Source of the DNA: Acidimicrobiia bacterium
Lineage (GTDB): Bacteria; Actinomycetota; Acidimicrobiia; IMCC26256; BP-133
Direction: 5' to 3'
Length of the DNA stretch: 64,000 bases
Assembly: GCA_044867425.1 (NCBI GenBank)
Contig: JBIOUX010000167.1
Location: 20,365-84,364, forward strand
How positions within the stretch are numbered: position 1 is the first letter of the stretch; every line of letters begins with the position of its first letter. A model generated the notes under the pieces. It worked only from the letters and a program-made list of their open reading frames with translations, was not told where the DNA came from and made no database searches. The translations under genes and the position numbers were made by a program. This document shows, piece after piece, positions 9,447 to 51,979 of this stretch.

Positions 9447-9468
9447 TCGGGGACACCCCGAACCCCGG
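9447..9468 (-). repeat. Short palindromic repeat family R27, intergenic copy
   Basis: Reverse complement reads CCGGGGTTCGGGGTGTCCCCGA, identical to the dapD copies. Confidence 0.8.
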
Positions 9469-9568
9469 AGAAACCTTCATTGGCCTCTCAACGAATTGGA
9501 CTGGGCAATGTGTCCAGAGGTGACATTCTGGCCCGTTACATTTGTCCAAATTGGACATGGCCCTGCGG

Positions 9569-10018
9569 CTAACCCCCGTTGTTCTGCAAGCGGGTGCGCA
9601 GCTCGTCGAGGAGGGAGCCGATGGCGGAGAGGTGCTCCTCGATCCGGGCCACGTAGGCCTCGGGCGAACTGTCGGGCACCTCGTCGTCCACCTCGATCTC
9701 GTTGATCACGGCTTCGGCGAACTCGGCCTGCGCGTCCGGGACGAGGATGGTGCCGGTGGCGTCCGCCCCCGGGCCGGTCCACTCGACCATGACCGAGATG
9801 CCGGCCGACTCGAGGCGGCGGCGCAGGATCTGGGCCGACAGGCGGGGGTAGTCGCCCATCTCCACCAGGTCGGTGGCGTCCAGCACATCTTCGTCATTGT
9901 CGGCCGGCTGGGCGTCGGGTGGCTCGGCCACCAGGGCGACCCGGCAGTCGCTGCAATAGCGCGAGCCCACGGTGTACTCGGCTCCGCACGACGGGCACCA
10001 CACGGCGGGGGCACTCAT
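9569..10018 (-). CDS. Zn-ribbon plus DUF2007-like hypothetical protein (149 aa)
   Basis: CPSCG..YCSDC ribbon followed by LRRRLESAGISVMV; lies at the 3' end of the long ORF-track frame 9569..11299. Confidence 0.65.
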   Translation of the reverse strand: MSAPAVWCPSCGAEYTVGSRYCSDCRVALVAEPPDAQPADNDEDVLDATDLVEMGDYPRLSAQILRRRLESAGISVMVEWTGPGADATGTILVPDAQAEFAEAVINEIEVDDEVPDSSPEAYVARIEEHLSAIGSLLDELRTRLQNNGG

Positions 10019-10120
10019 GCACGGCAGTCTACGAAAGGACCGGGCGTGCTGGAGGTACGGCTCGTGGCGGTGAGGGTCGTAAAGGGGGGAAGCGGCGGGG
10101 CCCGGTACGCTTAGCTCGTT

Positions 10121-12051: not shown

Positions 12052-13295
12052 GGTGTGACGTCCTGGCCGTGGGCACGGAGCTGCTCCTCGGCCAGCTGGT
12101 CGACACCAACAGCGCCTGGATCGGCGAGCAGCTGGCGGCGGTGGGCATCGACAGCCACCTGCACGTCGTGGTGGGCGACAACCAGGACCGCGTGGTGGAG
12201 ACCATGGGCTGGCTCCTGGCCCAGAGCGACGCCCTTCTCGTGTGCGGTGGGCTCGGCCCCACGCCCGACGACCTGACCCGGGAGGCCATCGCTGAGGTGA
12301 TGGGGGTCGGGCTGGTGCGCCACGAGCACCTGGTCGACCACATCCGGGAGCTGTTCATGAGCCGGGGCCGTCCCATGTCGCCGTCCAACGAGCGCCAGGC
12401 CGACGTTCCCGAGGGGGGCCGGGCCATCGACAATCCCCTGGGCACCGCGCCGGGGCTGGCCTGTCCGGTGGACGGGAAGGTCATCTACGCCGTGCCCGGG
12501 GTGCCCTACGAGATGCAGGCCATGGTCACCGACGACGTCATCCCCGACCTGCTGGCCCGGGCCGGGGAGCGGGCCACCATCGTGTCCCGGTCCCTGCGGA
12601 CGTGGGGCTCGGCGGAGTCGACGCTGGCCGAGCGCATCGCCGGCCGGGTCGACGCCCAGACGAACCCCACCATCGCCTTCCTGGCCCGGGGCATCGAGGG
12701 GCTCTACGTCCGCATCACGGCCAAGGCCGCCAGCGAAGCCGAGGCCCGCAAGCTGATCGAGGCGGAGGAAGCGGAGCTGCGGGCCGTCCTGGGCGACCTG
12801 GTCTTCGGGGTTGACGAGGAGACCATGGAGGCCGTCGTGCTTGGCCTGCTCCGGGAACGGGGCTGGACCCTGGCCGTGGCCGAGTCCGTCACCGGCGGGC
12901 TGGTCAGCGCCCGCCTGGTCGACGCCCCCGGCGCCAGCGACACCTTCCGCGGCGGGCTGGTGACCTACGCCACCGACGTCAAGCGCCCGGTGCTGGGGGT
13001 GACCGCGGAGAAGGTGGTGAGCGGGGAGTGCGCCATCCAGATGGCCGAGGGGATCCGCCGCGTGATGGGCGCCGACGTCGGCCTGGGCGTGACCGGCGTG
13101 GCCGGGCCCACCGAGCAGGACGGGGAGCCGGTGGGCACGGTGTGGTTCGGGGTGGCGCTTCCCGGCATGGCGCCCGAGGCCGTCCGGGGCCGGTTGCCCG
13201 GCGACCGGGAGCGGGTCCGGCAGTTCTCCACCATCTCGCTGCTCAATCTGCTGCGCCTCCGGCTCCTGGCCCGGGAGGGCAGCGGACTCCTCTGA
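12048..13295 (+). CDS. cinA: Competence/damage-inducible protein CinA (molybdopterin-binding + NMN deamidase domains)
   Basis: VGTELLLG..DTN, GGLGPTPDDLTRE, AVAESVTGG, TGVAGP. Confidence 0.93.
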   Translation: MRCDVLAVGTELLLGQLVDTNSAWIGEQLAAVGIDSHLHVVVGDNQDRVVETMGWLLAQSDALLVCGGLGPTPDDLTREAIAEVMGVGLVRHEHLVDHIRELFMSRGRPMSPSNERQADVPEGGRAIDNPLGTAPGLACPVDGKVIYAVPGVPYEMQAMVTDDVIPDLLARAGERATIVSRSLRTWGSAESTLAERIAGRVDAQTNPTIAFLARGIEGLYVRITAKAASEAEARKLIEAEEAELRAVLGDLVFGVDEETMEAVVLGLLRERGWTLAVAESVTGGLVSARLVDAPGASDTFRGGLVTYATDVKRPVLGVTAEKVVSGECAIQMAEGIRRVMGADVGLGVTGVAGPTEQDGEPVGTVWFGVALPGMAPEAVRGRLPGDRERVRQFSTISLLNLLRLRLLAREGSGLL

Positions 13296-13352
13296 TGGCT
13301 CTTCGCCTGGCGGCTCATCGCGATGCGGCCGGGGACCCCAGCCCCGGCCGCC
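13295..13352 (+). repeat. 58-bp junction repeat R58, copy 1
   Basis: ATGGCTCTTCGCCTGGCGGCTCATCGC...GCGGCCGGGGACCCCAGCCCCGGCCGCC; near-identical at 25602 and 29751. Confidence 0.9.
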
Positions 13353-13374
13353 CGGTCCAGCGGCCGCACCGGCT

Positions 13375-21272: not shown

Positions 21273-22207
21273 CCACGCTCCATCTCTCCAAGCTCCACGC
21301 CACCGCCAACGACTTCCTGGTGCTGGCCGACCTCGAGGCCGCCTTCGGCCCCGCCGGGCACGGGGGTGCGGGGGTGTCCCCCGGAGGCACAGCGCGCCTG
21401 TCGCCCGCCCTGCGGGCCGCCCTGTGCGACCGTCGCCGGGGCATCGGCGCCGATGGATTCATCCGACTCCTGCCCGGCGGCGACGGGGCCGACTGCGCCA
21501 TGGAGCTCACCAACGCCGACGGCGGCCTGGCCGAGATCAGCGGCAACGGCCTGCGTTGCCTGGCTTGGGTGGCCGCCGCCCACGGCCTGGGCGCGGACGG
21601 CCGGATGGTGGTCGACACCGCCGCCGGACCCCGTCACATCACGTTCACCCGCCGCCCCGACACCGGCGAGGTCGACTTCGCCGAGGTGGACATGGGGGCT
21701 GTGACCTTCGTGCCCGGCGACATCCCCCTCGACGCCCCCGACCCCTTCGACCTCGAGGCGGTGGTCGATGGCGTGGTCTATCGGGGCGACGCCGCCGGCG
21801 CCGGCAACCCGCACTTCGTCCTCCTGGTCGACGACCCGGCCACTGTCCCCCTGGACCGCCATGGGCCGGTGCTCGAGACCGACGCCCGCTTCCCCCGCCG
21901 CACCAACGTGGAGATGGTCGCCGCCCGGGCCGGCGGCCTGCACATGCGGGTCTGGGAGCGGGGGGTGGGAGAGACCGCCTCCTGCGGATCGGGGGCCTGC
22001 GCGGCGGCCGCCGTCGCCCACCGCCGGGGCCTGGTGCCCGCCCGTTCGGTGGTGGCCGTGCCCGGCGGGGAGCTGAGTGTGGAGGTGGGCGACACGGTGC
22101 GCCTCGGCGGTCCCGTCGTCCACGTGTTCGACGTGGACATCGACCTCGAGCGGTTCCCCGAGAACCCCGGGGCCCGGGGTGTCCCCGAGAACATGGAGAT
22201 CCCATGA
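21269..22207 (+). CDS. dapF: Diaminopimelate epimerase (first catalytic Cys appears as Ser)
   Basis: NDF, GIGADG, NADGGLAEISGNGLRC, GNPH, NVE, VWERGVGETASCGSGAC. Confidence 0.88.
   Translation: MTTLHLSKLHATANDFLVLADLEAAFGPAGHGGAGVSPGGTARLSPALRAALCDRRRGIGADGFIRLLPGGDGADCAMELTNADGGLAEISGNGLRCLAWVAAAHGLGADGRMVVDTAAGPRHITFTRRPDTGEVDFAEVDMGAVTFVPGDIPLDAPDPFDLEAVVDGVVYRGDAAGAGNPHFVLLVDDPATVPLDRHGPVLETDARFPRRTNVEMVAARAGGLHMRVWERGVGETASCGSGACAAAAVAHRRGLVPARSVVAVPGGELSVEVGDTVRLGGPVVHVFDVDIDLERFPENPGARGVPENMEIP
21361..21390 (+). repeat. Degenerate R27 copy inside dapF (loop peptide GGAGVSPGG)
   Basis: CGGGGGTGCGGGGGTGTCCCCCGGAGGCAC resembles the dapD unit. Confidence 0.5.
22166..22192 (+). repeat. 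R27 copy in dapF 3' end (27 nt, PGARGVPEN)
   Basis: CCCGGGGCCCGGGGTGTCCCCGAGAAC; the 11-mer TCCCCGAGAAC occurs at 22155 and 22182, a 27-nt period. Confidence 0.85.
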
Positions 22208-30552: not shown

Positions 30553-33500
30553 ATGGCGATGGCGCCGGAGCAGGTCGGGATCGGGGTCCGCAGGCACTTC
30601 ACGCGAGCGGGGGTGCATCCCTACGACTCGGTGGCGTGGGAGAAGCGGGACGCCCGCATCCCGAACTACAAGTCCGGCGGCGACGCCTTCTTCCAGCCCG
30701 GGGTCGAGTTCCCCGTCAGCTGGTCGCAGAACGCCACCAACATCGTGGCTCAGAAGTACTTCCGGGGGCAGTTGGGCACGCCCGGCCGGGAGTCGTCGCT
30801 GCGCCAGGTCATCGACCGGGTGGCCGACACCATCTCCGACTGGGGCGTGCGCGACGGCTACTTCGTCGACGAGGCGGAGGCCGACGCCTTCCGGGACGAG
30901 CTCAAGTACCTGCTCGTCCACCAGCGGGCGGCGTTCAACTCGCCGGTGTGGTTCAACATCGGGGTGAAGGGCGTGCCGGCCCAGGCCTCAGCCTGTTTCA
31001 TCCTGGCCGTCGACGACACCATGTCCTCCATCCTCAACTGGTACGTGGAGGAGGGCACGATCTTCAAGGGCGGGTCCGGCTCGGGGATCAACCTGTCCAA
31101 CATCCGCTCCTCGGTCGAGCCCCTGGCCGGCGGCGGGACGGCCAGCGGGCCGGTCAGCTTCATGCGGGGCGCCGACGCCTCGGCCGGCACCATCAAGTGC
31201 CTCCACGCCGACACCGAGCTGGTGACCGACCACGGGTCGGTGCCCATCCGCTCGGTGGCCGCGGGCTGGCAGGTGCTGACCCGCCACGGCTTCCGCACCG
31301 TCACCGCCGTCCACGACAACGGGGTCCGTCCCCTGGTCCGGGTGCGCACCGCGCTGGGCGACGAGATCACCTGCACGCCCGAGCACCGCTTCCGGGTGCG
31401 CACGACGCTGGGCGAGATGTGGCGCCAGGCGGGGGAGCTGGGGCCGGACGACTACGTCGTCGTCGACCTGGCCCACACCGACGCCGGCTCCCCCCAGCGC
31501 CTGGTGGCGGCCGAGCCCGGCAGCGCCGAGGTGGTCCTGCCCGAAGCGCTCGACGAGGCCTTCGCCGTCTGGCTGGGCTGGGCCCATGGCGAGGGGCGGC
31601 TGCGCCCGGTGGCGGGCAGCGGGGCCCTGGCCGTGCATCTCGACGGCGAGGACAAGGCGCTGGTCGAGCGCTACCGGGCCTTCACCACCTCGGTGTTCGG
31701 TCGCCGGGCGGTGGCGGGCATGTCCACCGCCCGGGGCGGGGCGGCGCCGCCGGCCACGCTGTGCGCTCCGACGGTGGCCCGCTTCCTGCGGGACAACGGG
31801 CTGTGGCGGCTGGGGGCGGCGACGGTGCCCCGGCCGGTGCGATCCTCGCCCGCCGCCGTGCGAGCCGCCTTCCTGGCCGGCCTGTTCGAGTCGGACGGCC
31901 ACGTCCAGCACGGGTGCCCGACGCTGTGGACCCGGCGCCGGGGGCTGGCCCTCGACGTCCACCGTCTCCTGCTGTCCATCGGCATCCCGTCCAAGGTGTC
32001 GCAGGCCCGTCCGCCGGTGTCGGTGAAGGCTGGGTTCGCAGAGCCGGGCGACGACGACGCTGCGCCCGGGGCCGCCCCCACGAGCGGTCCCGGGGAGCGA
32101 GGTGTCCCCGAGAAGCAGGGCCTCTGGCGGGTGCGGGTGGTCGGCGGTGAGGGCGTGCGGCGCTTCGCCAAGCTGGTGGGCTTCGTCTCCGAGGGGAAGG
32201 CGCGGCTGCTGGAGACGGCGCTGGAGGTGGCCAAGGAGGAGCCGGAGGCCTTCGAGGCGAGCTGGTTCTTCCCCCACGTCGACGCCGAGCTCGACCGGCT
32301 CGCCTTCGGGATCGGCGCCTCCCTGCGGGCGGCCATCGGGTCGTACCGCCACGACGCCCACCCCTACGGGATGAGCCTGCCCCGGGCGGCGGGCATCGCC
32401 GCCGCCTTCCCGGCCGAGCTCGAAGGGCCCCTGGCCCGCTTCGCCCGGGGCGAGGAGCTCTACGTCCCCGTCACCGTGGAGGCGGCGGGCGAGGGGCCGA
32501 CCTTCGACCTCACCGTCGAGGACGTGCACGAGTACCTCGTCCACTCGGTGGTCACCCACAACTCGGGGGGCAAGACCCGCCGGGCGGCCAAGATGGTCAT
32601 CCTCAACGCCGACCACCCCGACATCGAGACCTTCATCTGGTGCAAGGCGGTGGAGGAGCGCAAGGCCCGGGCCCTGGCCGCGGCCGGCTTCGACATGGAT
32701 CTCGACGGGGTCGACTCGCACTCCATCCAGTACCAGAACGCCAACAACTCGGTGCGGGTGACCGACGAGTTCATGCAGGCGGTCTTGGACGACGACGACT
32801 GGGACCTCAACGCCGTCACCACCGGCGAGGCGATGAAGACCATGAAGGCCCGGGCCCTGCTGCGCCAGATCTCGGAGGCGGCCTGGGAGTGCGCCGACCC
32901 GGGGATGCAGTTCGACACCACCATCAACCGCTGGCACACGGCGTCGAACACGGGACGGATCAACGCCAGTAACCCTTGCTTCCCCGGTGACGCCAAGGTC
33001 CACACCGACAAGGGCCTGATCCGCTTCGACGAACTGGTGGACCGGGTGCGCCTGGGCGAGAGCTTCGGCGTGTACACCCATGACGCCACCAGCCCCGACG
33101 CCCCCGCCGAGCGTCTCGAGATCACGACGCCCGAAGCCGTGATGATCACCGGCTTCAACGAGATCGTGAAGCTCTCGTTCTCGAACGGGATGGAGCTGCG
33201 CTGCACGCCGAACCACAAGATCTTCACCGTCAACCGCGGCTACGTGGCGGCATCGGAGCTGACCGCGGCCGACGACGTGAAGGTTCTCGACCTTCCGGCA
33301 CCGGCGGTCCACGCCGATTGGCGCCTTCCCGTGTCGACGGACATGCGCGATTACTCGGTGAAGGGCGACTGGTCACGTTCACTGCGTCTGCCCGAGAAGT
33401 GGAGCGAGGACTTCGCCCACTACCTCGGCTGGCTGGTCGGAGATGGCTGCATTTCCGAGAACATGGTCACCACCGTCTACGGCAACGGTGACGACCAGGA

Positions 33501-36500: not shown

Positions 36501-37242
36501 GCAGAAGAAGGCGAGCGGGACCGCGGACACGGTGGTCCGTGAGGTGGAGCGGGTGGTGGAGACGATCGTCCTCCAGGAGCCCATCCGCCAGAAGCTGCCC
36601 CGGAAGCGGAACTCGAAGACGTTCTCCTTCCGGGTGGCCGACTGCCACGGCTACGCCACGGTGGGGGAGTACGAGGACGGCCGACCCGGCGAGATCTTCC
36701 TCAAGGTGGCGAAGCAGGGCTCCACCATGGCCGGGATCATGGACGCCTTCGCCATCTCGGTGTCCCACGGCCTGCAGTACGGCGTGCCCCTCAAGGCCTT
36801 CGTGGAGATGTTCATCAACATGCGCTTCGAGCCGGCGGGGATCACCGACGACCCCGAGATCCGCCTGGCCGCCAGCCTGGTGGACTACATCTTCCGGCGC
36901 CTGGCGGTGGAGTACCTGCCCTATGAGGACCGGGTCGACCTCGGCATCCTCACCGTGGGGGAGCGGACCCAGCCCACCCTGCCCGGGGTGGAGGAGGCGT
37001 CGATCCCGCCCGAGCCGTCGGCCGAGCTCAGCCTCGACCTGACCGACGGTCCGGGCACCCCGCCGCCGGCGGGGCCCAGCGCCCCGCCGCCTGCCGCGGC
37101 TCCCGGGCCGCAGGCAGCCGCCGTCCCCGAGGGCACCCGCCGCATCGACGCCCCCTTTTGCTACAACTGCGGCATGGAGATGCAGCGGGCCGGGAGCTGC
37201 TACGTCTGCTCCTCCTGCGGCGCCACCAGCGGCTGCTCCTAG
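30553..37242 (+). CDS. nrdJ: Vitamin B12-dependent class II ribonucleotide reductase precursor with three inteins (predicted mature 938 aa)
   Basis: FNSPVWFN, SACFI, SGGKTRRAAKM, NP|CSEY, APTGTI, GAISK|TINMP, AIYRD, C-terminal TSCPD/Zn-ribbon region. Confidence 0.96.
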   Translation: MAMAPEQVGIGVRRHFTRAGVHPYDSVAWEKRDARIPNYKSGGDAFFQPGVEFPVSWSQNATNIVAQKYFRGQLGTPGRESSLRQVIDRVADTISDWGVRDGYFVDEAEADAFRDELKYLLVHQRAAFNSPVWFNIGVKGVPAQASACFILAVDDTMSSILNWYVEEGTIFKGGSGSGINLSNIRSSVEPLAGGGTASGPVSFMRGADASAGTIKCLHADTELVTDHGSVPIRSVAAGWQVLTRHGFRTVTAVHDNGVRPLVRVRTALGDEITCTPEHRFRVRTTLGEMWRQAGELGPDDYVVVDLAHTDAGSPQRLVAAEPGSAEVVLPEALDEAFAVWLGWAHGEGRLRPVAGSGALAVHLDGEDKALVERYRAFTTSVFGRRAVAGMSTARGGAAPPATLCAPTVARFLRDNGLWRLGAATVPRPVRSSPAAVRAAFLAGLFESDGHVQHGCPTLWTRRRGLALDVHRLLLSIGIPSKVSQARPPVSVKAGFAEPGDDDAAPGAAPTSGPGERGVPEKQGLWRVRVVGGEGVRRFAKLVGFVSEGKARLLETALEVAKEEPEAFEASWFFPHVDAELDRLAFGIGASLRAAIGSYRHDAHPYGMSLPRAAGIAAAFPAELEGPLARFARGEELYVPVTVEAAGEGPTFDLTVEDVHEYLVHSVVTHNSGGKTRRAAKMVILNADHPDIETFIWCKAVEERKARALAAAGFDMDLDGVDSHSIQYQNANNSVRVTDEFMQAVLDDDDWDLNAVTTGEAMKTMKARALLRQISEAAWECADPGMQFDTTINRWHTASNTGRINASNPCFPGDAKVHTDKGLIRFDELVDRVRLGESFGVYTHDATSPDAPAERLEITTPEAVMITGFNEIVKLSFSNGMELRCTPNHKIFTVNRGYVAASELTAADDVKVLDLPAPAVHADWRLPVSTDMRDYSVKGDWSRSLRLPEKWSEDFAHYLGWLVGDGCISENMVTTVYGNGDDQDEILSWHRELLTWMNGDREPKPSVQQNGTLQLRQTRRVVARFLEALGIGHSKASEKKIPWAIEQAPAEIVAAFLRGLFDADGCVYDGENSRYVGMGSASRVLVEDVQRLLATFGVFSRIYATRKGGEACFPYTGKDGVDRTYRSKPLFDLRIANRSIEAFAGHIGFSVPAKHNKLATLLLNHEFYDTCRTVKLLARSEDGVELTYNLCEPRNHSYIVNNIIIRNCSEYMHVDNSACNLASLNLLKFLNDDDMFDVEGFKAAVEVIFTAQEILVGNADYPTPKIGENSRAFRQLGIGYANLGALLMAQGLPYDSDKGRVLAGAITSLMTGHAYATSARTAGRMGPFAGFAKNKEPMLNVLRMHRAEVDKIDPSLAPAELVEAARSSWDEAVEISETHGVRNSQASVLAPTGTIGLMMDCDTTGVEPDLALTKAKKLVGGGTMFIVNQTVPRALRRLGYSDEQREAIIAWIDEHKTILGAPGLRAEDLPVFACAMGDNTIHYMGHVRMMAAVQPFISGAISKCVVGETLLSTANGLVRIGSLHRGEPADSFRDEYIEVASLGGTHKTDAFYYGGVRPVREAVLRSGHRVVGTPNHRLLVAGDGDVAWKRLDEVEPGDHVAVHYGAEMWSTLPARFDDFRPSARYGSQKRVRIPDEMSEELAFLLGAYVAEGHTTRCTWTVTITNSVPEVLERVAAAWRSLFGVEARIARPVDRCASVIVSSKTIVEFLEYLGCGDRASSKRIPDAVLCSPRSMVLAFLQGLFLDGYGAWMGRTPKAAICVDSPALLDDLQAVLTNLGVVHSRNSKLNRQNGKTCDEVYATGEAAQRLLRLVPFAEPAKAARAAELLAATPSQSNSDVVPGITPRDLLQLIPRGKWGSGSRTRTEFGFLHDPRTQHVSRRTLQRVAAIPGVELPYWLQLVIVDDLHFSPMERIADAGEREVYDISVPLVHAFVGNGIVNHNTINMPEEATVEDVEDLHIEAWKLGIKAIAIYRDNCKVAQPLSTQKKASGTADTVVREVERVVETIVLQEPIRQKLPRKRNSKTFSFRVADCHGYATVGEYEDGRPGEIFLKVAKQGSTMAGIMDAFAISVSHGLQYGVPLKAFVEMFINMRFEPAGITDDPEIRLAASLVDYIFRRLAVEYLPYEDRVDLGILTVGERTQPTLPGVEEASIPPEPSAELSLDLTDGPGTPPPAGPSAPPPAAAPGPQAAAVPEGTRRIDAPFCYNCGMEMQRAGSCYVCSSCGATSGCS
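31198..32562 (+). mobile_element. NrdJ intein 1 (455 aa), degenerate endonuclease
   Basis: TIK|CLHADT...VVTHN|SGG; TPEHRF block B; LAGLFESDG present, first dodecapeptide decayed (WLGWAHGEG). Confidence 0.9.
32089..32113 (+). repeat. R27 copy inside intein 1 (GPGERGVPE)
   Basis: CCCGGGGAGCGAGGTGTCCCCGAGA. Confidence 0.65.
32977..34170 (+). mobile_element. NrdJ intein 2 (398 aa) with LAGLIDADG endonuclease, inserted just before the thiyl-radical Cys
   Basis: ASNP|CFPGDA...IIIRN|CSEY; TPNHKI; YLGWLVGDG and FLRGLFDADG. Confidence 0.92.
35059..36372 (+). mobile_element. NrdJ intein 3 (438 aa) with LAGLIDADG endonuclease
   Basis: GAISK|CVVGET...IVNHN|TINMP; TPNHRL; LLGAYVAEG and FLQGLFLDG. Confidence 0.92.
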
Positions 37243-37417: not shown

Positions 37418-38731
37418 GAGCGTGGTCAGTTGGCGGTTGTCGAAGCCGGCCACGAGGTGGGGGAAGCCGACGACGGCAGCCATGACCGCCATCACCCGGG
37501 GGTCCCCGAACCGCAGCGCGGGTGCGTGCTGGCCGTCGATCTCGGACGGCCGGGCCACCTCGTTGAAGGTGACCACGTCAGGGGCCGGCTGGGCATCGGC
37601 TGCTTGAGCGTCACACAGACGCTGGTTGGCGGAGTCGCCAACGGATCGGAGGGCGTGCCAGTTCTCGGCGTTGACCCGCCGGCCGATCCCGAAGTCCCGG
37701 GTGTCGCTGATCACCGTCTCGGTGCGTAGCGCCCGGTGCTCTTTGAAGTACTGCTTGATCCGCGACGACTTGAAGTAGCAGACCATCTCGGGGTCGACCC
37801 TTTTGGTGATCACCTTGGTGCGGAACGTCCCCGGCGTGCGGCTGGTGACCTTCTTGTCGAAGATCAACGCCACCGAAGAGGGCCGTCCCACGTCGAGGTG
37901 GTCGCGGATGACCCCCTCGAAGCAGGACCGTCCCGCTTGGGGCCGGTCGAAGACCCGGGTGTCGGAGACCTCGAACTGGCGGAAGGCGAGTTCGTCGACA
38001 TAGCCGGCCCGCAGATCCGCCCGGGTGAACGGGGACGGGAGCTGGTGGACCCACCGCCAAAAGAAGCTCTTCACCGCCCCTGGGCCGAGTCGGTCACAGA
38101 TCCGCCGCAACTCCCGAGGGTCCTCACAGGAGCGGAAGCCGTTGTCGAGGGCCTGGTAGCCGATCCCCGCCTTCTCCAACTGCCGCTTGGCCCACTCGTG
38201 GCCGTTGAGCCAGATCCAGATCGGCCAAGGGGCGTAGGCGTTGGTCTTCCAGAACGCTCCGCCCCAGTCCGGGTCCCACAGGTAAAAGTAGAAGTGGTTC
38301 ACGAACGCCATCTGCCGTCCCCACTCCATATGCGGATGGCGGGCCTTCTTCTGACCCTTCGCGACCCAGGACCGCCAGACGGATGCCTTCTCCTGGGCGA
38401 TGCCGATGAGGACCACCTTCCCGTCCCCACCCTCCCGGGCGGCCTCATCGATGAGCGGCCGGGCCACCGCTTCCTTGTTCTCCCCCTTCTGAAAATGGAC
38501 CACGGGGATGCCGTGGCGTTTGGCGAAGCGGTGGACGGTGGCCACGTAGCCGTCGCCGATCTTCCCGAACGCCGCCCCCGACGGGATGATGAACCGCCGC
38601 TGCCAGCGGAGGAACCGGCACACCAGGCCCACCCACTGCAGCTTGGGCACATAGGCCTGGAGGAAGATCCGGTCGATCGACCGGCAAGTGAGCGTCACAT
38701 GGTCCCGGAGTAGGGTCGCGTAGTCGGCCAT
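37418..38731 (-). pseudogene. 3'-truncated transposase-like gene of an uncharacterised family
   Basis: GGAGG SD before ATG; DRIFLQAYVPKLQ, FYFYLWDPDWG, LNGHEWAKRQL..DNGF, IKQYFKEHRALRTET; protein-like sequence ends near GFDNRQLTT and the frame runs on antisense into nrdJ; family assignment from memory. Confidence 0.55.
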
Positions 38732-38742
38732 CGCAACCTCCA

Positions 38743-38811
38743 CGGGTCTTGAGCGACCCGAAGGCTATGACCGACGCGACCGGGGTGGTTCCGCGGAACC
38801 GACCCCGTCGC
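38743..38811. other. Two hairpins upstream of the transposase-like gene (possible element end)
   Basis: CGGGTC-TTGAGC-GACCCG (38743-38760); GCGAC.GGGGT-GGTTCCGCGGAACC-.ACCCC.GTCGC (38776-38811). Confidence 0.55.
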
Positions 38812-41257: not shown

Positions 41258-44200
41258 TCAGGACGGGGCGGCCCGCAGGCGATCCATCTCCCGGCGGATG
41301 CGCTGCTCGCTCACCGGGTGGGCCGTGCCCAGGGTCTGGGCGAAGAGGCTGACCCGGAGCTCCTCCAGCATCCAGCGGACGGCTTCGACCTCGGCGTCGC
41401 CGGGCCGGGCGTCGCGCAGCTGGTGATACTCCCCCTCGAGGGCCTGGACCCGGCCCATCAGGTCGGTGTCGCGCCGGGTGCCCTGGGCCAGCTTGTCCAA
41501 CCGGCGCTCCATCGCCTCCAGGTAGCGCAACACATCGCCCAGGCGCTCCACCCCGGCGGCTCCGACGAAGCCGGGGAACACCAGGCCCGACAGCTGCCGG
41601 CGCATGTCCGCCACCGCCGGCCGCAGCGGGGCCGCCGTGGTGGCGTCCAGGCGGTCCTCGACCATGCCGGCCACCACCAGGATGCCGCCGGTCACGGTGG
41701 CCACGTAGACGGCGGTGTCGACCAGCCCGCGCTCGACGGCGGCCCGCAGCTCGGAGAAGCCGGACTCGTCCCACGCCGGCCCCCCGTGATCGGCCATCAG
41801 GCGGTCGACGGCGGCGCTGATGCAGTCGCCCAGCAGCTCGGCCGCACTGCCGTAGGGGCTGCGGGCCAGGACGAGCTTGGTGTCGTTGGCCAGCTGACGC
41901 TGCACCGCCTTGGCCGGCGACGGGACGGCCAGGAGGAGGAGGCGCCGGGTCCCCGTCCACATGGCCCGCTCCTGGGCGGCCGGGCTGGTGAGCACCCGCA
42001 CGGCCACGCTGTCGACCTCGTCGACCAGGGCGGGATAGGCCTCCACGGTATGGCCGGCCCAGCTCACCTCGACGGTGTGGGGCAGGCGGCCGAAGTCCCA
42101 GGCCCGCAACCCGCTTCGTTCGAAGGACCGGGCGGCGCCGGCGACGGCCGCCCGCATCCGGTCCGCCAGCCGGCGCCGGAGCTCGTCGAGGTCCCGGCCG
42201 GCGGCCAGGGTGCGGCCGGACTCGTCCTCCACCCGGAACGTGATCCGCAGGTGAGCGGGGAGACGTCCGGGATCGAAGTCGGCGCCGCCGACCGGCTCCC
42301 CGCTCATCCGGGTGAGCTCCCGGGCCAGCACCGGGAGCAGCGGCCCGTTCCCCGGGCCCGCCCGGGTGAGGAAGTCGCGGGCGTAGTCGGCGGCGGGCAC
42401 CAGGTTGCGCCGCAACGCCTTGGGCAGGGAGCGGATGAGGGCGGTGACCAGCTCGTGGCGCCAGCCCGGGATCTGCCAGTCGAAGCCGGCGCCCTCCAGC
42501 CCGTCGAGGAGCGGGAGGGGGACGGTGACCGTGATCCCGTCCGACTCGGACGTCGGGTCGAACTCGTATTCCAGCGCCAGCGTGGCCTCGCCCACCGCCC
42601 AGCGGTCCGGATGGTCGGCCCGGCTGACGGGGCCGGCGCCGGGATCGAGCAGCCCCTCCAGGGTGAAGTCGAACAGATGGGGCTGGGCCGGCTGCTCGTC
42701 CTTCCACCACCGGTCGAAGTGCCGGGCCGAGGTCACCACCCCGGGCAGGCGCTCGTCGTAGAAGGCGACGAGCACCTCCTCGTCCACCAGCAGGTCACGC
42801 CGGCGGGTCCTCGCCTCCAGGGTCCGGACCTCCTCCACCAGCCGGGCGTTGTGCTCCACGAACCGGTGATGGGTCCGCCACTCGCCCTCCACCAGGGCGT
42901 GGCGGATGAACAGCTCCCGGGCCCCGGCGGGGTCCACCCGCCCATAGCCCACCCGGCGGGCGGTGACGATGGGCAGGCCATAGAGGGCGACCCGCTCATA
43001 GGCCATGGCCTCGCCGTGCTCGGCGTCCCAGTGGGGCTCGCTGTAGCTGCGCTTCACCAGGTGGGCGCCCAGGCGTTCGGCCCACTCGGGCTGGATGCGG
43101 GCCGCCACCCGGGCCCACAGCCGGTTCGTCTCCACCAGCTCGGCGGCCATCACCCACCGGGGTGTGGCCTTGAACAGCGACGAGCCGGGGGCGATGGCGA
43201 AGCGGGCGCCGCGTGCCCCCTGATAGTCGCGGGTCGTCCCGTCCCGGGCCCCGATGTGGGACAGGAGGCCGGCCAGCAGCGACAGGTGGATCCGGTCCGG
43301 GTTGCCGGGCTGCGTGTTGACCTGGAGGCCGAGGCTGCGGGTCACCTGGCGGAGCTGGCCGTAGATGTCCTGCCACTCCCGGACCCGCAGGTAGTTGAGG
43401 AACTCGGCCCGGCACCGTTTGCGAAACTGGTTCGACGACAGGGCTTCGGCCTGCTCGGTCAGGTGGTCCCAGAGCCGGAGGTAGGCCAGGAAGTCGGAGT
43501 CACCGCCGGCGAAGCGGCCATGCCACTCGTCGGCCGCCTGCTGCTTGTCGGCCGGCCGCTCCCGGGGGTCCTGGATGGCCAGGGCGGCGGTGATGACCAT
43601 CACCTCGTGGATGCAGCCGTGGCTCTCGGCCTCGAGCACCATGCGGCCCAGCCGGGGATCCAGGGGGAGGCGGGCCAGCCGCCGGCCGAGCCGGGTGAGG
43701 CGCCGGCTCGGCTCGTGGGCCGCCGGGTCGAGTGCCCCCAGCTCCTCCAGCAGCGCCACGCCGTCCTTGATGTTGCGGGCATCGGGCGCCTCCACGAAGG
43801 GGAAGCGGGCCATGTCCCCCAGCCCCAGGGCCTCCATCTGGAGGATGACCGAGGCCAGGTTGGTGCGCAGGATCTCGGGCTCGGTGAACTCGGGGCGGGC
43901 GGCGAAGTCGTCCTCGGCGTACAACCGCAGGCAGATGCCGGGGGCCACCCGGCCACAGCGTCCGGCCCGCTGGTTGGCCGACGCCTGGGACACCGCCTCG
44001 ATGGGAAGGCGCTGCACCTTGGTCCGGCAGTTGTAGCGGGAGATCCGGGCCGTGCCCGGATCGACGACGTAGCGGATGCCCGGCACGGTGAGCGAGGTCT
44101 CGGCCACGTTGGTGGCCAGCACCACCCGGCGACCCGGGGCCCGGGGTGTCCCCGAAGAGACCGGGTGGGGTTGGAAGACCCGGTGTTGCTCGGCCGCTGA

Positions 44201-45040
44201 CAACCGGGCGTAGAGGGGCAGGATCTCGGTGGCGGGAAGGTCGACGGCCGCCAGGGCGTCGGCGGCGTCGCGGATCTCCCGTTCCCCGGAGAGGAACACC
44301 AGGATGTCGCCCGGCCCCTCCGTCATGAGCTCGGCTACCGCCTCGCAGATGGCCTCGGCCTGGTCGGTGTCCTCGGCCAGGGGCCGGTAGCGGACCTCCA
44401 CCGGGTAGGTACGTCCCGACACCTCCACCACCGGGGCGCCGTCGAAGTGGGCCGCGAACCGCTCGGTGTCGATGGTGGCTGAAGTGATCACCACCTTGAG
44501 GTCCGGTCGCTGGGGCAGCAGCTGCTTGAGGTAGCCGAGGAGGAAGTCGATGTTGAGGCTGCGCTCGTGGGCCTCGTCGATGATCAGCGTGTCGTAGCCG
44601 GACAGCAGGCGGTCACGCTGGATCTCGGCCAGGAGGATGCCATCGGTCATGACCTTGACCAGGGTGGCGTCGCCCACCCGGTCGGTGAAGCGCACGGCGT
44701 AGCCGACGGCGCCGCCCACCTCCGTCCCGAGCTCGGTGGCGATCCGCTCGGCGATGGTGCGCGCCGCCAGCCGGCGGGGCTGGGTGTGGCCGATGAGACC
44801 CTCGGTGCCCCGGCCCAGTTCCAGGCACATCTTGGGCAGCTGGGTGCTCTTCCCCGAACCCGTCTCCCCGGCGACGATCACCACCTGGTGGTCGCCGATG
44901 GCGCCCAGGATGTCGTCCTTCCTGGCGGTGATGGGCAGCTCGGCCGGGTACTGCGGAACGGGCCGGGCGGAGCGCCGGAGCTCCAGCCGGCGCCGCTCCG
45001 CCGGCGACGGCCGGCCCGGCTCGGCCGATCTCGGGGACAC
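41258..45040 (-). CDS. hrpA: ATP-dependent RNA helicase HrpA; start approximate (GTG 45040)
   Basis: GETGSGKSTQLPK, HTQPRRLAAR, IIDEAHERS, SATID, ATNVAETS, QRAGRCGR, EELRVSLFAQ C-terminus. Confidence 0.95.
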   Translation of the reverse strand: MSPRSAEPGRPSPAERRRLELRRSARPVPQYPAELPITARKDDILGAIGDHQVVIVAGETGSGKSTQLPKMCLELGRGTEGLIGHTQPRRLAARTIAERIATELGTEVGGAVGYAVRFTDRVGDATLVKVMTDGILLAEIQRDRLLSGYDTLIIDEAHERSLNIDFLLGYLKQLLPQRPDLKVVITSATIDTERFAAHFDGAPVVEVSGRTYPVEVRYRPLAEDTDQAEAICEAVAELMTEGPGDILVFLSGEREIRDAADALAAVDLPATEILPLYARLSAAEQHRVFQPHPVSSGTPRAPGRRVVLATNVAETSLTVPGIRYVVDPGTARISRYNCRTKVQRLPIEAVSQASANQRAGRCGRVAPGICLRLYAEDDFAARPEFTEPEILRTNLASVILQMEALGLGDMARFPFVEAPDARNIKDGVALLEELGALDPAAHEPSRRLTRLGRRLARLPLDPRLGRMVLEAESHGCIHEVMVITAALAIQDPRERPADKQQAADEWHGRFAGGDSDFLAYLRLWDHLTEQAEALSSNQFRKRCRAEFLNYLRVREWQDIYGQLRQVTRSLGLQVNTQPGNPDRIHLSLLAGLLSHIGARDGTTRDYQGARGARFAIAPGSSLFKATPRWVMAAELVETNRLWARVAARIQPEWAERLGAHLVKRSYSEPHWDAEHGEAMAYERVALYGLPIVTARRVGYGRVDPAGARELFIRHALVEGEWRTHHRFVEHNARLVEEVRTLEARTRRRDLLVDEEVLVAFYDERLPGVVTSARHFDRWWKDEQPAQPHLFDFTLEGLLDPGAGPVSRADHPDRWAVGEATLALEYEFDPTSESDGITVTVPLPLLDGLEGAGFDWQIPGWRHELVTALIRSLPKALRRNLVPAADYARDFLTRAGPGNGPLLPVLARELTRMSGEPVGGADFDPGRLPAHLRITFRVEDESGRTLAAGRDLDELRRRLADRMRAAVAGAARSFERSGLRAWDFGRLPHTVEVSWAGHTVEAYPALVDEVDSVAVRVLTSPAAQERAMWTGTRRLLLLAVPSPAKAVQRQLANDTKLVLARSPYGSAAELLGDCISAAVDRLMADHGGPAWDESGFSELRAAVERGLVDTAVYVATVTGGILVVAGMVEDRLDATTAAPLRPAVADMRRQLSGLVFPGFVGAAGVERLGDVLRYLEAMERRLDKLAQGTRRDTDLMGRVQALEGEYHQLRDARPGDAEVEAVRWMLEELRVSLFAQTLGTAHPVSEQRIRREMDRLRAAPS
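44133..44164 (+). repeat. R27 copy inside hrpA, read antisense as PVSSGTPRA
   Basis: CCCGGGGCCCGGGGTGTCCCCGAAG, matching the dapF copy core. Confidence 0.85.
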
Positions 45041-45053
45041 CCCGACCCCCGGG
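45031..45053 (-). repeat. R27 copy at the pabB/hrpA junction
   Basis: Reverse complement CCCGGGGGTCGGGGTGTCCCCGA; contains the in-frame GTG proposed as hrpA start. Confidence 0.75.
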
Positions 45054-48661: not shown

Positions 48662-48897
48662 GTCGAAAATTCCCGTCACTGGTAAGCCTTCCCTGGCAGG
48701 AACGACATCAGATATGTCGAAATTGTGACGGGCCGAGCACTTGAGCGTGGTAACGGGGGGAACCACGACTGGTGCTCGTCACGGAGCCCGAGCCCCCCTC
48801 GGCACATGGCGTTTTGCGGAACTCTGGTGCGGTGTCGGCCTCGCGGCCTTGATACCCCGGAGTGAGAGCAATTCTCCGCCGGGGTGGGGCCGGGCTC
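48662..48897. ncRNA. Candidate structured RNA of unknown class
   Basis: Multiple nested stems and complementary G6/C6 loops (see findings); no known family recognised. Confidence 0.35.
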
Positions 48898-49780
48898 AAC
48901 TTTGTCCGGGCCGCTGGCGCACGGGCGGGCGCTAGCTTCGCCGGTCGTGCCCGCCATTCCCGCCGAGGTCGCCGCCCTCCTCGGCCCCGTGCCCGAGGAC
49001 CGCTCGGGCGAAGGCGGCGGCTGCGTGCTGGCCGGCAACGGACACGTGGCCCGGATCGGTCCCCCGGAGGTCGTGGGTCGGGAGGCGTTCGTCCTCGGCC
49101 TCGACGCCCTGCCCGTCGCCCGGCCCGCCCTGGTGGCCGCCGGCGAGGGTTGGGTGGTCACCGCCGAGGTGGCCGACCATGACGGCAGCTGGAGCCGGGG
49201 CGACCTCCACGGCGCCCTGTCCGACCTCGGCCGGCTCCACGACCATTACCAGGCGGCGCTTCCCACCGGCGCCGGCGCTGTCCTGCGCCGGCCCTTCGAC
49301 GGTGCCACCACCGACCGGTTGCTGGCCGGGTCACGGCCGCACACCCACCTCCTCCCGCCGCTCCTGGCCCGCCTGCTGGGCGACCCCGAACCGTTGCTGG
49401 ACGTGCTGAGCCGGGAGCCGGTGACGCTCCTGCACGGCGACCCGTGGCCGGCCAACGTCCGCCGGCCCGGGCCCGGGCGCCGGGTGTGGGTGGACTGGGA
49501 GCAGGCGTCGGTGGGCCCGGCGGCGGCCGACCTGGCCACCTGGCTCGACCAGACCCCGTGGTACCTGCGCCGGGAGATCGACGTCGACGAGCACGTGGCG
49601 GACTACCTGGGCGCCCGCCGCCGTCCGGTCGACCCGGCGGCCTTCCGCCAGGCGGTCGACGCCGCCGCCGTGGTGTGGTTCCTGGCCTTCGACGTGCCCC
49701 GGCTCTCCGAGGCGCCGCCGTGGCTGGCGGAGCACATGGTGGGGGCCAAGGACGAAGCGGCCCATCGGGTCCTCGGCTGA
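48884..49780 (+). CDS. APH/choline-kinase-like phosphotransferase; start uncertain
   Basis: TLLHGDPWPANV, WVDWEQASVGPAAADLA. Confidence 0.75.
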   Translation: MGPGSTLSGPLAHGRALASPVVPAIPAEVAALLGPVPEDRSGEGGGCVLAGNGHVARIGPPEVVGREAFVLGLDALPVARPALVAAGEGWVVTAEVADHDGSWSRGDLHGALSDLGRLHDHYQAALPTGAGAVLRRPFDGATTDRLLAGSRPHTHLLPPLLARLLGDPEPLLDVLSREPVTLLHGDPWPANVRRPGPGRRVWVDWEQASVGPAAADLATWLDQTPWYLRREIDVDEHVADYLGARRRPVDPAAFRQAVDAAAVVWFLAFDVPRLSEAPPWLAEHMVGAKDEAAHRVLG

Positions 49781-49852
49781 CACGTTCGGGAACCGCGGGG
49801 CTGCCCGCGTCGTCCCAACCGGCAGTTGCATATCCGAGGAAGGGACCACACC

Positions 49853-51979
49853 ATGCGCCGCTCCCGCTGCCGCCGCTCCCGCCGAACCACCCTCGCCGCC
49901 ACCGCCGCCGCCCTGGCCGTCCTGACCGGCGCCTGCACGTCCGGGGCCGGGCCGGGCAAGGTCATCGCCGAGGTCGGCGTCGACCTGCGCCTCGCCTCCG
50001 CCCTGCGACCCTTCGACGCCTGCGGCGATTTCCTCGACCACGTCCGGTCGGAGGCGCTCACCCACCACGCCTTCGGCGAGGTGGCCTTCTACGGGTGGGG
50101 CCAGCGCGGCGACGTCATCGCCCTCGAGGGCCGGGCCACGGCCGCGCCCCGGCCGGTGTCGGCGCCGGTCAACGACGCGGCGGGAGAGAGCGCGGCCAAG
50201 ACCGCCGCTCCCCAGGCGTCGGGCACCAACGTCCAGGAGGCAGGGGTCGACGAGCCCGACGTGGTCAAGACCGACGGGCGGCGCATCGTCACCGTGACGT
50301 CGGGGACACCCGGAGCCCCGGAGGCCGGCGGGCGCCTCCAGGTGCTGGTGGTGGAGGACGGCCGGCACCGCCTGGCCGGTTCCCTCCCGCTGCCCGGCAA
50401 CGGCGGCGACCACGACCTGCTGCTCAGTGGGAACCGGGTGCTCGTCCGATCCTCCACGTGGTCCCCCGAGCCCGCATCCGGCTCCGTCTTCCGTGAGGCC
50501 CCGGCCTCGGACCTGATGATCGCTCCGGGCCGCCAGCGCACCGTCCTCACGCTGGTCGACATCTCCGATCCCGCCGCCCCCGCCGTCGTGTCCACCTTCG
50601 AGATCGACGGCCATGTCCTGGGCGCCCGCCTGGTGGGAGACGTGGCCCGGGTCGTGACCGGCGCCGAGCCCCAGGGCTTCACCCCCACGTACCCGACCGA
50701 CGGCTCCCCGGCCGAGCAGTCCCGGGTGGAGGCCGCCAACCGGACCCAGGTGGAGGGATCCACGCTGCGCAACTGGCTTCCGGAGTACACGCTGCGGTCG
50801 TCCGCCCCGGACGCCCCCACGGTCTCGGGCGTGGCCGTGGAGTGCGCCCGGGTGAGCCGGCCGGCCGAGTTCTCCGGGCTGGGCACCATCTCCGTGCTCA
50901 CCTTCGATCTCTCCGAGGGGCTCTCCGACGGCGACGCCGTCACCGTGCTGGCTGACGGCCAGACGGTCTACGCCTCGGAGGAGGCCCTCTACGTGGCCAC
51001 CACCCGCTACCCCGAGATCGCCCCCATGGCTGACGGCACCCTCTCCGGCGCCCCCATGGCCGGCCCCGGGGCGGCGCCGCCGGTGGTGTCCGAGGAAACC
51101 ACCGAGATCCACAAGTTCGACATCACCGGGACGGGTCCGGCCCGCCACGTCGCCTCCGGCCGGGTGCGGGGCCACCTCCTCAACCAGTTCTCCATATCGG
51201 AATTCGACGACCGCCTCCGGGTCGCCACCACGGTCTCGGCGACCGCCGCTCCGGTTCCCGGTGGCGGTACCTCCGAGAGCCTCGTCACCGTGCTCGAGGA
51301 CCGGTCCGGCGTGCTGGAGCAGGCGGGCGAGGTCGGCGGCCTGGGGCGGGGCGAGCAGATCTACGCCGTGCGCTTCATCGGCGCCGTCGGCTACGTCGTC
51401 ACCTTCCGCCAGACCGACCCGCTCTACACCATCGATCTCTCCGACCCGTCGACCCCCCGGGTGGTGGGCGAGCTCAAGATCCCCGGCTACTCGGCCTACC
51501 TCCACCCGGTGGGGGACGGGCTCCTGCTCGGGATCGGCCAGGACGCCACCGACACGGGGCGGCGCACCGGCGCCCAGGCGTCACTCTTCGACGTGAGCGA
51601 CCCGGCGCAGCCCCGCCGCCTCGACCAGGTCGCCCTCGGTGTCGGTTCGTCCGCCGCCGAGTTCGACCACCACGCCTTCTTGTGGTGGGCGCCCCGGGGC
51701 CTGGCCGTCCTGCCCCTCCAGACCTACGACCCGGTGTACTCCAGCGTGGCCGTGGGCCTGTCGGTGGACCGGGGCCGGGGTCTGGGTGAGGCCGGCCGGA
51801 TCACCCATCCCGGCGGAGCTCCCGACGGTGCGACCGGCAAGGTCGCCGGCGACGGGTCCAATTCCATCCAGCGCTCGCTGGTGATCGACGACGCCCTCTA
51901 CACCCTCTCCTCGGCCGGGATCCTGGCCAGCAACCTCGGCGATCTCACCACCCGCCAGTGGGTCGCCTTCCAGCCCTAG
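49853..51979 (+). CDS. Lipoprotein with beta-propeller (Beta_propel-type) domain
   Basis: Lipobox LTGAC; SGTNVQEAGVDEPDVVKTDG, LLNQFS, GEQIYAVRF, TFRQTDPLY, LKIPGYSAYLHP. Confidence 0.85.
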   Translation: MRRSRCRRSRRTTLAATAAALAVLTGACTSGAGPGKVIAEVGVDLRLASALRPFDACGDFLDHVRSEALTHHAFGEVAFYGWGQRGDVIALEGRATAAPRPVSAPVNDAAGESAAKTAAPQASGTNVQEAGVDEPDVVKTDGRRIVTVTSGTPGAPEAGGRLQVLVVEDGRHRLAGSLPLPGNGGDHDLLLSGNRVLVRSSTWSPEPASGSVFREAPASDLMIAPGRQRTVLTLVDISDPAAPAVVSTFEIDGHVLGARLVGDVARVVTGAEPQGFTPTYPTDGSPAEQSRVEAANRTQVEGSTLRNWLPEYTLRSSAPDAPTVSGVAVECARVSRPAEFSGLGTISVLTFDLSEGLSDGDAVTVLADGQTVYASEEALYVATTRYPEIAPMADGTLSGAPMAGPGAAPPVVSEETTEIHKFDITGTGPARHVASGRVRGHLLNQFSISEFDDRLRVATTVSATAAPVPGGGTSESLVTVLEDRSGVLEQAGEVGGLGRGEQIYAVRFIGAVGYVVTFRQTDPLYTIDLSDPSTPRVVGELKIPGYSAYLHPVGDGLLLGIGQDATDTGRRTGAQASLFDVSDPAQPRRLDQVALGVGSSAAEFDHHAFLWWAPRGLAVLPLQTYDPVYSSVAVGLSVDRGRGLGEAGRITHPGGAPDGATGKVAGDGSNSIQRSLVIDDALYTLSSAGILASNLGDLTTRQWVAFQP
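50300..50321 (-). repeat. R27 variant inside the beta-propeller gene (SGTPGAP)
   Basis: Reverse complement CCGGGGCTCCGGGTGTCCCCGA. Confidence 0.65.

Follow-up and report, generated by a model that had tools for sequence, protein, structure and literature searches.

R27, a 27-nt palindromic insertion element dispersed through genes and gene junctions in one lineage of Acidimicrobiia

How does the same short hairpin come to lie within several unrelated protein-coding genes of one bacterium? This question is raised by a stretch of 64,000 nucleotides (hereafter the window) from an Acidimicrobiia bacterium, which corresponds to positions C167:20365-84364 of the metagenome-assembled genome (MAG) GCA_044867425.1, here designated G000 (5.33 Mb in 227 contigs, 71.5% G+C). 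An original prediction made from the letters of the window had noticed a hairpin-forming repeat of about 27 nt, which we call R27, at scattered intergenic and genic sites, and had proposed a very short, selfish or REP-like (repetitive extragenic palindromic) element that remodels proteins. Comparison of G000 with related genomes, all of them MAGs with a completeness of 61-97%, revealed that R27 is a dispersed insertion element and neither a convergent peptide motif nor a chance GC-rich word. It consists of a defined 27-nt unit that is inserted at unrelated loci in both orientations, amplified in tandem and neutral with regard to the reading frame.

A search of the window with the 23-nt motif CCCGGGGYYCGGGGTGTCCCCGA, allowing up to three mismatches, yielded eight matches, at 9447(-), 22166(+), 24724(+), 24751(+), 32089(+), 44133(+), 45031(-) and 50300(-), compared to none in 100 dinucleotide-preserving shuffles of the same sequence. 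The 13-nt hairpin core was matched nine times, against an expectation of 1.07. In the complete G000 assembly, we counted 133 exact 13-mers and, on both strands and at up to three mismatches, 224 copies of a 22-mer, the reversed pattern of which was found in none of the genomes scanned. The repeat family noticed in the window is confirmed by these counts, and its frequency, for which a comparison with chance had been called for, lies far above both the shuffled and the reversed-pattern controls. All copies listed in the original prediction exist, except that the partial one near 54760 is weak and amounts to a match to the 13-mer with one mismatch.

The R27 unit is composed of a 22-nt core, CCCGGGGYYCGGGGTGTCCCCG, and a purine-rich tail of approximately 5 nt. 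Read from its 5' end, the core contains the heptamer CCCGGGG, two pyrimidines and the hairpin CGGGG-TGT-CCCCG with a stem of 5 bp and a loop of 3 nt. Alignment of 131 exact cores showed conservation from position -9 to about +18 relative to the 13-mer CGGGGTGTCCCCG, with AAGA(S)A as consensus of the tail. Since the tail is purine-rich alike in sense, antisense and intergenic copies, it belongs to the element and is not a product of selection at the protein level. Twenty arrays of two to four units were found in the genome, and the spacing was 27 nt in 24 of the 26 intervals, in genic and intergenic arrays alike, which bears out the period of nine codons read earlier from the window. The unit contains no stop codon in any of the six frames and its length is a multiple of three, so that genes are not broken by it.

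The most direct evidence for insertion comes from orthologous sites. The joined flanks of 60 R27 sites of G000 were queried in four congeners (G001-G004), whose identity to G000 is about 81-85% and which are separated from one another by roughly equal distances, and the recovered loci were aligned, giving 175 site-by-genome comparisons. Fifty-seven of these orthologues were exactly empty, 31 differed from the empty state by exactly +27 nt, four by +54, six by +24 and five by +30, and 160 of the 175 length differences were multiples of three. At least one exactly empty orthologue was recovered at 32 of the 60 sites. The original prediction had considered that orthologues without the motif might carry sequence of the same length in its place; they are instead 27 nt shorter, and this exact presence or absence of 27 nt supports its view of a short REP-like repeat lying in frame in genes in both orientations. 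At C207:38734, forward copies are present in G000 and G001 and reverse copies in G002 and G003, with G004 being empty, and at the dapD junction of the window (24724-24777) the two copies of G003 are oriented opposite to those of G000. The opposite orientations at these two loci show recurrent insertion. Inheritance is evident for copies with derived variants in common, namely CCACG, shared by G000 and G001 at C69:14632, and CTGGGG, shared by G000 and G002 at C87:26123. The presence patterns as a whole fail the four-gamete test, e.g. {G000,G003} versus {G000,G002}, and therefore clean loss, re-insertion or recombination must also occur.

R27 is restricted to one uncultured lineage. At up to two mismatches, the 22-mer occurs 185 times in G000 and 129-179 times in each of the four congeners. 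Two further genera of the family contain the repeat, with counts of 82 and 10-31, respectively, whereas genomes from other families of the same order, of which 29 were scanned, have 0-3. Arrays with a period of 27 occur in the other two genera as well. We found no match at up to one mismatch in 300 further Acidimicrobiia genomes spanning 136 genera. A phage vector was dismissed as viral contigs gave no exact match, and so was a known RNA family, as Rfam yielded no match in the window. In the searchable literature, we came across no description of the motif, nor of repeats of this kind in Acidimicrobiia, in agreement with the original prediction, which knew of none in this lineage.

For the position of R27 relative to genes, coding sequences (CDS) were predicted by a codon-score gene caller made for this analysis, which resulted in a coding density of 87%. 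By this measure, 176 of the 224 G000 copies (~79%) lie wholly within a CDS, 43 are intergenic and five straddle a gene end. Their orientation is neutral to transcription, with 96 sense versus 80 antisense copies in CDS and 19 versus 22 between co-directional genes, where most of the intergenic copies are found; many copies are found where two genes meet or immediately before a start codon. The genes carrying R27 do not belong to a common class, and their proteins have unrelated functions. Within genes, the first and the last decile are enriched (31 and 39 copies, respectively, compared to 5-24 in the middle deciles). The reading frame is far from evenly used: the counts for frames 0:1:2 are 80:2:14 for sense and 4:33:43 for antisense copies, and the skew persists at least 200 nt away from gene ends (43:1:5 and 2:15:16, respectively). 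Sense copies in frame 0 encode PGxRGVPE, antisense copies SGTPRxPG or GDTPxPG, which are the RGVPE-type and SGTP-type peptides that had been expected from the two orientations. In the two frames that are hardly used, the peptides are xRGxGCPR and RGHPxPR, with a Cys or with a His and two Arg. That the skew might follow from the phase in which CCCGG or purine runs naturally occur in genes was considered and rejected, since the natural distributions disagree: CCCGG occurs in coding sequence in phases of 6200:13045:8255, the opposite of the R27 pattern, and the phase of the target is thus not the cause of the skew. Most likely, the skew stems from selection acting on the inserted peptide, by which copies in the two depleted frames have presumably been removed.

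The core itself is maintained at the nucleotide level. In 21 pairs of orthologous filled sites, divergence was 12.8% in the core, 34.3% in the tail, 26.9% in the adjoining 10 nt and 14.1% in the distal flanks, i.e. the core evolves 2-2.7 times slower than its immediate surroundings. The CCCGGGG heptamer was the most conserved part in this small sample of pairs that are not independent of one another. The closing pair of the hairpin covaries, being C-G in 185 copies, G-C in eight and T-A in five; the 13 compensated pairs compare to an expectation of 1.36 (p<5e-5), to which shared ancestry of subfamilies may contribute. Together with the slow core and a consensus that is the same in three genera, this covariation indicates maintenance of the core as nucleotide sequence. 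Of the original label 'selfish or REP-like', the second half is consistent with a family that shows exact 27-nt presence or absence, whereas pure selfishness is questionable for a core conserved above its surroundings.

The insertion junctions were parsed manually, in alignments of sequences with a divergence of about 15%. A regular target-site duplication was not found: the 5 nt upstream of the core match the 5-nt tail barely above chance (diagonal Z 1.3-2.9). Identity of at least four of these five flanking positions was seen in 12 of 175 copies versus 3.6 expected, and in at least four of them the upstream sequence reads ..TCCCCG plus 5 nt, the terminal part of an adjacent unit that has decayed; with several of the matches being array remnants, a 5-nt duplication around the 22-nt core was rejected as a general feature. 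A duplication of CCGG(G), parsed as 23+4 or 22+5 nt, fits hrpA, C18:12091, C58:4273 and a few others, and was rejected as well, given that CCGG is found at +6 in eight of 175 single copies; the CCGGG signal in a first position matrix was due to tandem arrays. Two clean G000-specific insertions, at C105:38058 (GCTC^GACGGAGCC) and C46:4844, consist of the bare 27-nt unit without any repeat. A preference for certain targets is nevertheless suggested by 28 empty sites resolved by hand, of which 13 (~46%) have (C)CCGG at or beside the junction, namely, among others, hrpA, nrdJ, C18:12091, C58:4273, C87:26123, C98:794 and C35:60196, and further C162:4548, C163:51920, C169:24668 and the dapF site at 21356. 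CCGG occurs at ~2% of positions, and for a window of about eight positions the chance expectation is estimated at ~15%. At the CCGG sites, the filled allele reads CCGG-23 nt-CCGG and is parsable as a target overlapping the CCCGGGG of the element itself. Since CCCGGG is self-complementary, the 5' arm of R27 could pair with single-stranded targets of this kind in either orientation.

The copies in the window, whose genes were assigned by Pfam, illustrate these features at individual loci. The gene dapF contains, close to its N-terminus, a variant copy with the stem GGGGGTGTCCCCC (21356..21385, plus strand), which is a 30-nt in-frame insertion specific to G000; all four congeners lack it and show the empty site CCCGCC^GGTGGG. 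A further copy, at 22166..22192 (+), lies in frame in the C-terminal tail of dapF (last 14 codons; ..FPEN[PGARGVPEN]MEIP, then stop), directly precedes the start of hflX (22204) and is missing from G002-G004. The sequence TTCCCCGAGAAC upstream of it resembles the 3' remnant of an earlier tandem copy, and the 11-mer duplication previously described in dapF is best read as this remnant of a second, partly deleted tandem copy. Two tandem copies, 24724-24750 and 24751-24777 (+), are located between the stop codon of an aminotransferase gene and the conserved N-terminus of dapD. This junction is empty in G001, where it reads ..CCCATGACCCACGACGACCTGGCC with an ATGA stop/start overlap followed by M-T-H-D-D-L-A-K. 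Because of the overlap in the empty orthologue, the start of dapD in G000 is, judging from the sequence, most likely GTG 24717, with a GTGA overlap, and both copies would then be in frame and add 18 residues after codon 2.

A diverged copy with three mismatches is found in nrdJ at 32089..32115 (+), in frame within ..TSG[PGERGVPEK]QGLW..; the site is filled in G001, and in G002-G004 exactly 27 nt are missing, the sequence being GGTCCCGGG^CTCTGG. The open reading frame (ORF) of nrdJ that holds this copy (30613-37242) comprises 2209 codons and has a lower G+C content (~66.5%), consistent with multiple inteins. In hrpA, an antisense copy at 44133..44159 (+) adds VSSGTPRAP between RVFQPHP and GRRVVLATNVAETS. 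The site is empty in G001, G002 and G005, in which CAGCCCCA is followed by CCCGGG and AAG, and filled in G000 and G003 (+27, one copy) as well as G004 (+51, two copies). The nine residues are also missing from 13 distant orthologues from Haemophilus, Serratia, Streptomyces and others, which read RVFQxHxGRR(I/V)VLATNVAETS without insert. In an AlphaFold model of the helicase core of hrpA (mean predicted local distance difference test, pLDDT, of 71), the inserted residues 265-273 lie between a helix (253-258) and a strand (275-280), and residues 265-272 have a pLDDT <50, i.e. they form a low-confidence loop. This predicted loop, together with the enrichment in the terminal deciles of genes, agrees with the proposal that R27 remodels proteins at loops and termini. 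The hrpA gene of G002 shows 54 extra nt at a position other than that of the G000 insert (L002 ~2700-2774), after ..GGGGCACTCGAC; the segment holds GGCTTCTTCGGCGGCGTCC-like sequence and may represent two decayed antisense R27 units.

On the 5' side of hrpA, a copy at 45027..45053 (-) lies between the stop codon of the gene for a chorismate-binding enzyme (45061) and conserved hrpA sequence. It is either a leader or an N-terminal extension of hrpA, and the predicted GTG start at 45040 falls into the hairpin loop. Several called starts use the GTG of this loop (CGGG-GTG-TCCCCG), at 45038-45040 of the window and at C130:29275 and C169:22299 of G000, with predicted N-termini VSPE.. or VSPR..; from the sequence, these could be artefacts of the gene caller or start codons supplied by R27. 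The beta-propeller gene contains a diverged antisense copy with two mismatches (50296..50322, minus strand; ..TV[TSGTPGAPE]AGG..), which is absent from the empty site of G001 and decayed in G002 and G004. The match at 54759..54771 (-), restricted to the hairpin core and without the flanking CCCGGGG, may be due to chance or a decayed remnant. In intergenic sequence, a copy at 9443..9469 (-) is part of the 5' leader of a small gene (9419..9096, with ATG at 9419), and G001, G002 and G004 show conservation both of the copy and of the sequence around it. The leader (9400-9500) is near-identical in four species that otherwise differ by ~16%, contains AAAAAACTCTCCCAGGAGGTGT in addition to R27, and may be a conserved regulatory leader having co-opted the R27 copy. 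A different repeat, R58, was seen in the window at 13295-13361, 25602-25668 and 29751-29817; its copies of ~67 nt are 87-91% identical, start with ATGGCTCTTCGCCTGGCGGCTCATCGC and each have a 10-bp stem (GCGGCCGGGG/CCCCGGCCGC), and those at 13295 and 25602 are at gene ends. A part of R58, CCGGGGAC..CCCCGG, is loosely like reverse-oriented R27, which may be chance in GC-rich sequence.

As a REP-associated tyrosine transposase (RAYT) or an insertion sequence (IS) with matching end hairpins had been suggested as mobiliser, the genomes were searched for such genes. The Y1 transposase domain PF01797 was found in three of five congeners (five to six copies in G000, two each in G002 and G004), but not in G001, G003 or G005-G011, and not in the sister genera. 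The genes are ordinary IS200/IS605 genes, two of them with TnpB-sized neighbours and three at contig ends, and nothing corresponding to the suggestion was found among them: the left-end hairpin, GCCCACGGCTTCGGCCGTGGGT, is unrelated to CGGGGTGTCCCCG of R27, and there is no R27 copy within 6 kb of the PF01797 genes. The tnpA genes of this type in G000 are located at C151:24939-25292, C36:5305-5658, C150:66594-66952, C34:9909-10259 and C190:12274-12627. Three of the five are ~95% identical and lie at contig ends, and the assembly breaks there were thus probably caused by them. The window itself contains an IS-like gene of an uncharacterised family without a Pfam match (37430-38743, minus strand, left end near 38820), of which a second copy is present at C11:1032-2342; the window copy is 3'-truncated relative to the latter, and the two share 87% amino-acid identity. 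Several copies of the gene exist in G001, G003 and G007, and G005 gives a weak match; the gene is missing from G002, G004 and from genomes outside this bacterial family, and has the palindrome GGTTCCGCGGAACC at its upstream end. Genes flanked by inverted R27 copies were considered as a hidden transposase and discarded, as the candidates look like housekeeping genes (NUDIX, MurF and CDP-alcohol transferase, by the appearance of their sequences and without a family search), with R27 at their termini.

We regard it as probable that R27 is a lineage-specific, REP/RPE-like family of miniature palindromic insertion units (RPE, Rickettsia palindromic element). New copies arise by insertion of whole units at unrelated loci in either orientation, plus local tandem duplication with the 27-nt period. 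Insertion leaves no target-site duplication and would favour CCGG/CCCGG sites able to pair with the CCCGGG arm of the element, which points to a single-strand, hairpin-guided route. An HUH/Y1-type enzyme supplied in trans could be responsible, or else a switch of template at the replication fork that is guided by microhomology; a DDE transposase would not fit. Each genic copy adds a Pro/Gly-rich nonapeptide, and copies survive mainly in loops, at termini or at gene junctions; the core and at least the closing base pair of the hairpin are held constant, perhaps as the part read by the spreading machinery or by a host factor, and flanking CCGG repeats may permit occasional clean loss. A bolder version, which we consider somewhat unlikely, would make R27 active mobile DNA of an undescribed kind, i.e. 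a 27-bp single-hairpin element with CCGG-paired integration in either orientation and without duplication, an enzyme specific to the family, the capacity to generate nonapeptide loops across the proteome, and occasional clean excision. Several observations weigh against the explanation of R27 as a family of insertion units. Many copies are old, being shared across species at ~84% identity, and activity at present is therefore conjectural. The hairpin has a modest folding energy as DNA (-4.9 to -6.9 kcal/mol), which same-composition shuffles match (z ~0), and its stability was dropped as evidence. A RAYT or IS200/IS605 mobiliser was rejected on account of the unrelated hairpins, the distance from R27 and the lack of the genes in several R27-rich genomes, and the IS-like gene at 37430-38743 on account of its unrelated ends and its absence from the R27-rich G002 and G004. 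The CCGG statistic is soft, resting on 28 hand-resolved junctions, and would be inflated if CCGG-flanked copies were lost more easily; flanking CCGG repeats could indeed favour precise deletion and so raise their share among polymorphic sites. The fraction of copies in CDS and their frames depend on our own crude gene caller, with about 40 sites confirmed by orthologue alignment, and the explanation does not account for sense copies being more often in frame 0 than in frame 2 (80 versus 14). Finally, conservation of the core at orthologous sites could reflect a host function instead of a requirement of mobility.

Spread without any enzyme, in which a 27-nt minisatellite seed is moved by replication slippage and by microhomology-mediated template switching from its G/C runs to CCGG- or CCCCG-like sequence at other loci, would account for the failure to find an R27-linked enzyme, for the CCGG or CCCCG-type microhomology to the element that is frequently seen at junctions, for the clean losses implied by homoplasy, and for common tandem arrays with their strict period and identical spacers within an array. 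Such a process should, however, produce variable lengths and partial units, yet +27 (31 cases) dominates over +24 (six) and +30 (five); microhomology is absent from both junctions of the insertions at C105:38058 and C46:4844, and an identical 22-nt core in three genera, evolving slower than its flanks, is not expected from passive drift. We find this explanation unlikely. A DNA or RNA motif functional in the host, either a binding site for a nucleoid protein or topoisomerase, as proposed for REPs and bacterial interspersed mosaic elements (BIME), or an mRNA hairpin that acts on stability or translational coupling at operon junctions, with its presence in genes being incidental, is quite unlikely in our view. 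It could explain the conservation of the core over adjoining sequence at orthologous sites, the covarying closing pair, the near-identical leader around the 9443-9469 copy in four species, the many copies at gene junctions or directly upstream of starts, and the same sequence in three genera. It is at odds with the random orientation relative to transcription, with copies that come and go freely between close species, essential genes included, with a copy number ranging from 10 to 185 within one family, and with ~79% of the copies lying in coding sequence of no common gene class. Retention of the nonapeptide PGxRGVPE as a short linear motif, for instance a flexible linker or a protease or modification site, is very improbable. 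The marked dominance of a single sense frame (80 of 96) and the Pro/Gly-rich, loop-like nature of the encoded peptides would suit such a peptide module, but of the copies within genes, nearly half run antisense and specify other, unrelated peptides, another 43 lie between genes, conservation extends to synonymous positions in genes that are unrelated, and the host proteins have no function in common; the antisense and intergenic copies largely exclude it.

Taken as a probable family of insertion units, R27 is of interest in several respects. Most known cases of intragenic palindromic repeats come from Rickettsia and a small number of REP-rich genomes, in which intragenic copies are the minority, whereas R27 is far smaller and mostly intragenic. 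It is found even in highly conserved motor and biosynthetic enzymes, such as HrpA, NrdJ, DapF, DapD and an apparent MurF, the last named from its sequence. Its exact presence or absence within a genus provides dozens of natural pairs of proteins with and without nine residues, in which the tolerance to loop insertions can be studied, and the target bias, the lack of a duplication and the covarying hairpin are handles for asking how REP-like elements spread without a RAYT. Annotators of Acidimicrobiia MAGs should expect extended termini, start codons that fall into the hairpin and, when close relatives are compared, indels of 27 nt. If it were active mobile DNA, R27 would be among the smallest mobile elements known.

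Among known repeats, coding minisatellites or variable number tandem repeats (VNTR) share with R27 a head-to-tail arrangement whose period is divisible by three, but occupy one or few loci and are of local origin, whereas R27 has more than 170 unlinked single copies in both orientations. Mycobacterial interspersed repetitive units (MIRU) are 46-101 bp long, essentially intergenic and located at operon junctions. R27 resembles them in being actinobacterial, in its occurrence at operon junctions with frames overlapping the stops and starts of neighbouring genes and in its tandem copies of fixed period, and differs from them in lying mostly inside genes and in both orientations. Palindrome-associated elements derived from IS200/IS605 move by the single-strand peel-and-paste mechanism known from IS608 and ISDra2, with a hairpin, a short base-paired target and no target duplication. 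R27 likewise has a hairpin, no target duplication and what may be a partial preference for a short target ((C)CCGG at 13 of 28 empty junctions, not all), but it has a single hairpin unlike that of the resident IS (GCCCACGGCTTCGGCCGTGGGT) in place of distinct left and right ends, and its target preference reaches only ~46%. QMITE1 and QMITE2 of Coxiella, miniature inverted-repeat transposable elements (MITE) of 150-400 bp with direct repeats of 2-11 nt, form in-frame fusions (PMC5896051), and R27 is similarly non-autonomous, overlaps ORFs and extends or interrupts proteins in frame. In contrast to MITEs, R27 is 27 bp long, has no target duplication of fixed length, no inverted repeat other than its internal hairpin and no recognisable parent IS.

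RPEs were reportedly described by Ogata et al. in 2000. The classic RPE-1 is roughly 100-150 bp long and encodes 30-50 residues, and RPEs occur in Alphaproteobacteria. R27 is likewise a palindromic repeat in frame in many unrelated protein genes and compatible with protein function; going by the descriptions, it is set apart by its length of 27 bp (nine residues) and its host, an actinomycetote, and it forms tandem arrays. RPE-4 and RPE-6 are mentioned by Di Nocera et al. 2013 (PMC3733652), and RPEs are also treated in PMC1779305. REPs are palindromes of 20-40 bp with GTAG or CGTC tags, found mostly downstream of genes and occasionally within them, with a link to RAYTs in those of the GTAG type (Di Nocera et al. 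2013, PMC3733652). With them, R27 shares a GC-rich hairpin of 20-40 bp, tens to hundreds of copies, restriction to a lineage, intragenic copies that add residues without inactivating the gene and the lack of a target duplication (PMC3733652). It differs in having no GTAG or CGTC tag (its position matrix reads 5' CCCGGGGYY and 3' RRGR), in being mostly intragenic (176 of 224) where REPs are predominantly downstream of genes, in forming head-to-tail arrays of strictly 27 nt and not head-to-head dimers, and in that no RAYT or REPtron was found for it. R27 thus agrees with REPs in size and palindromy and departs from them in tag, location and RAYT; it works like a REP or RPE but stands outside the REP superfamilies and, by its length and host, probably outside the RPE families as well.

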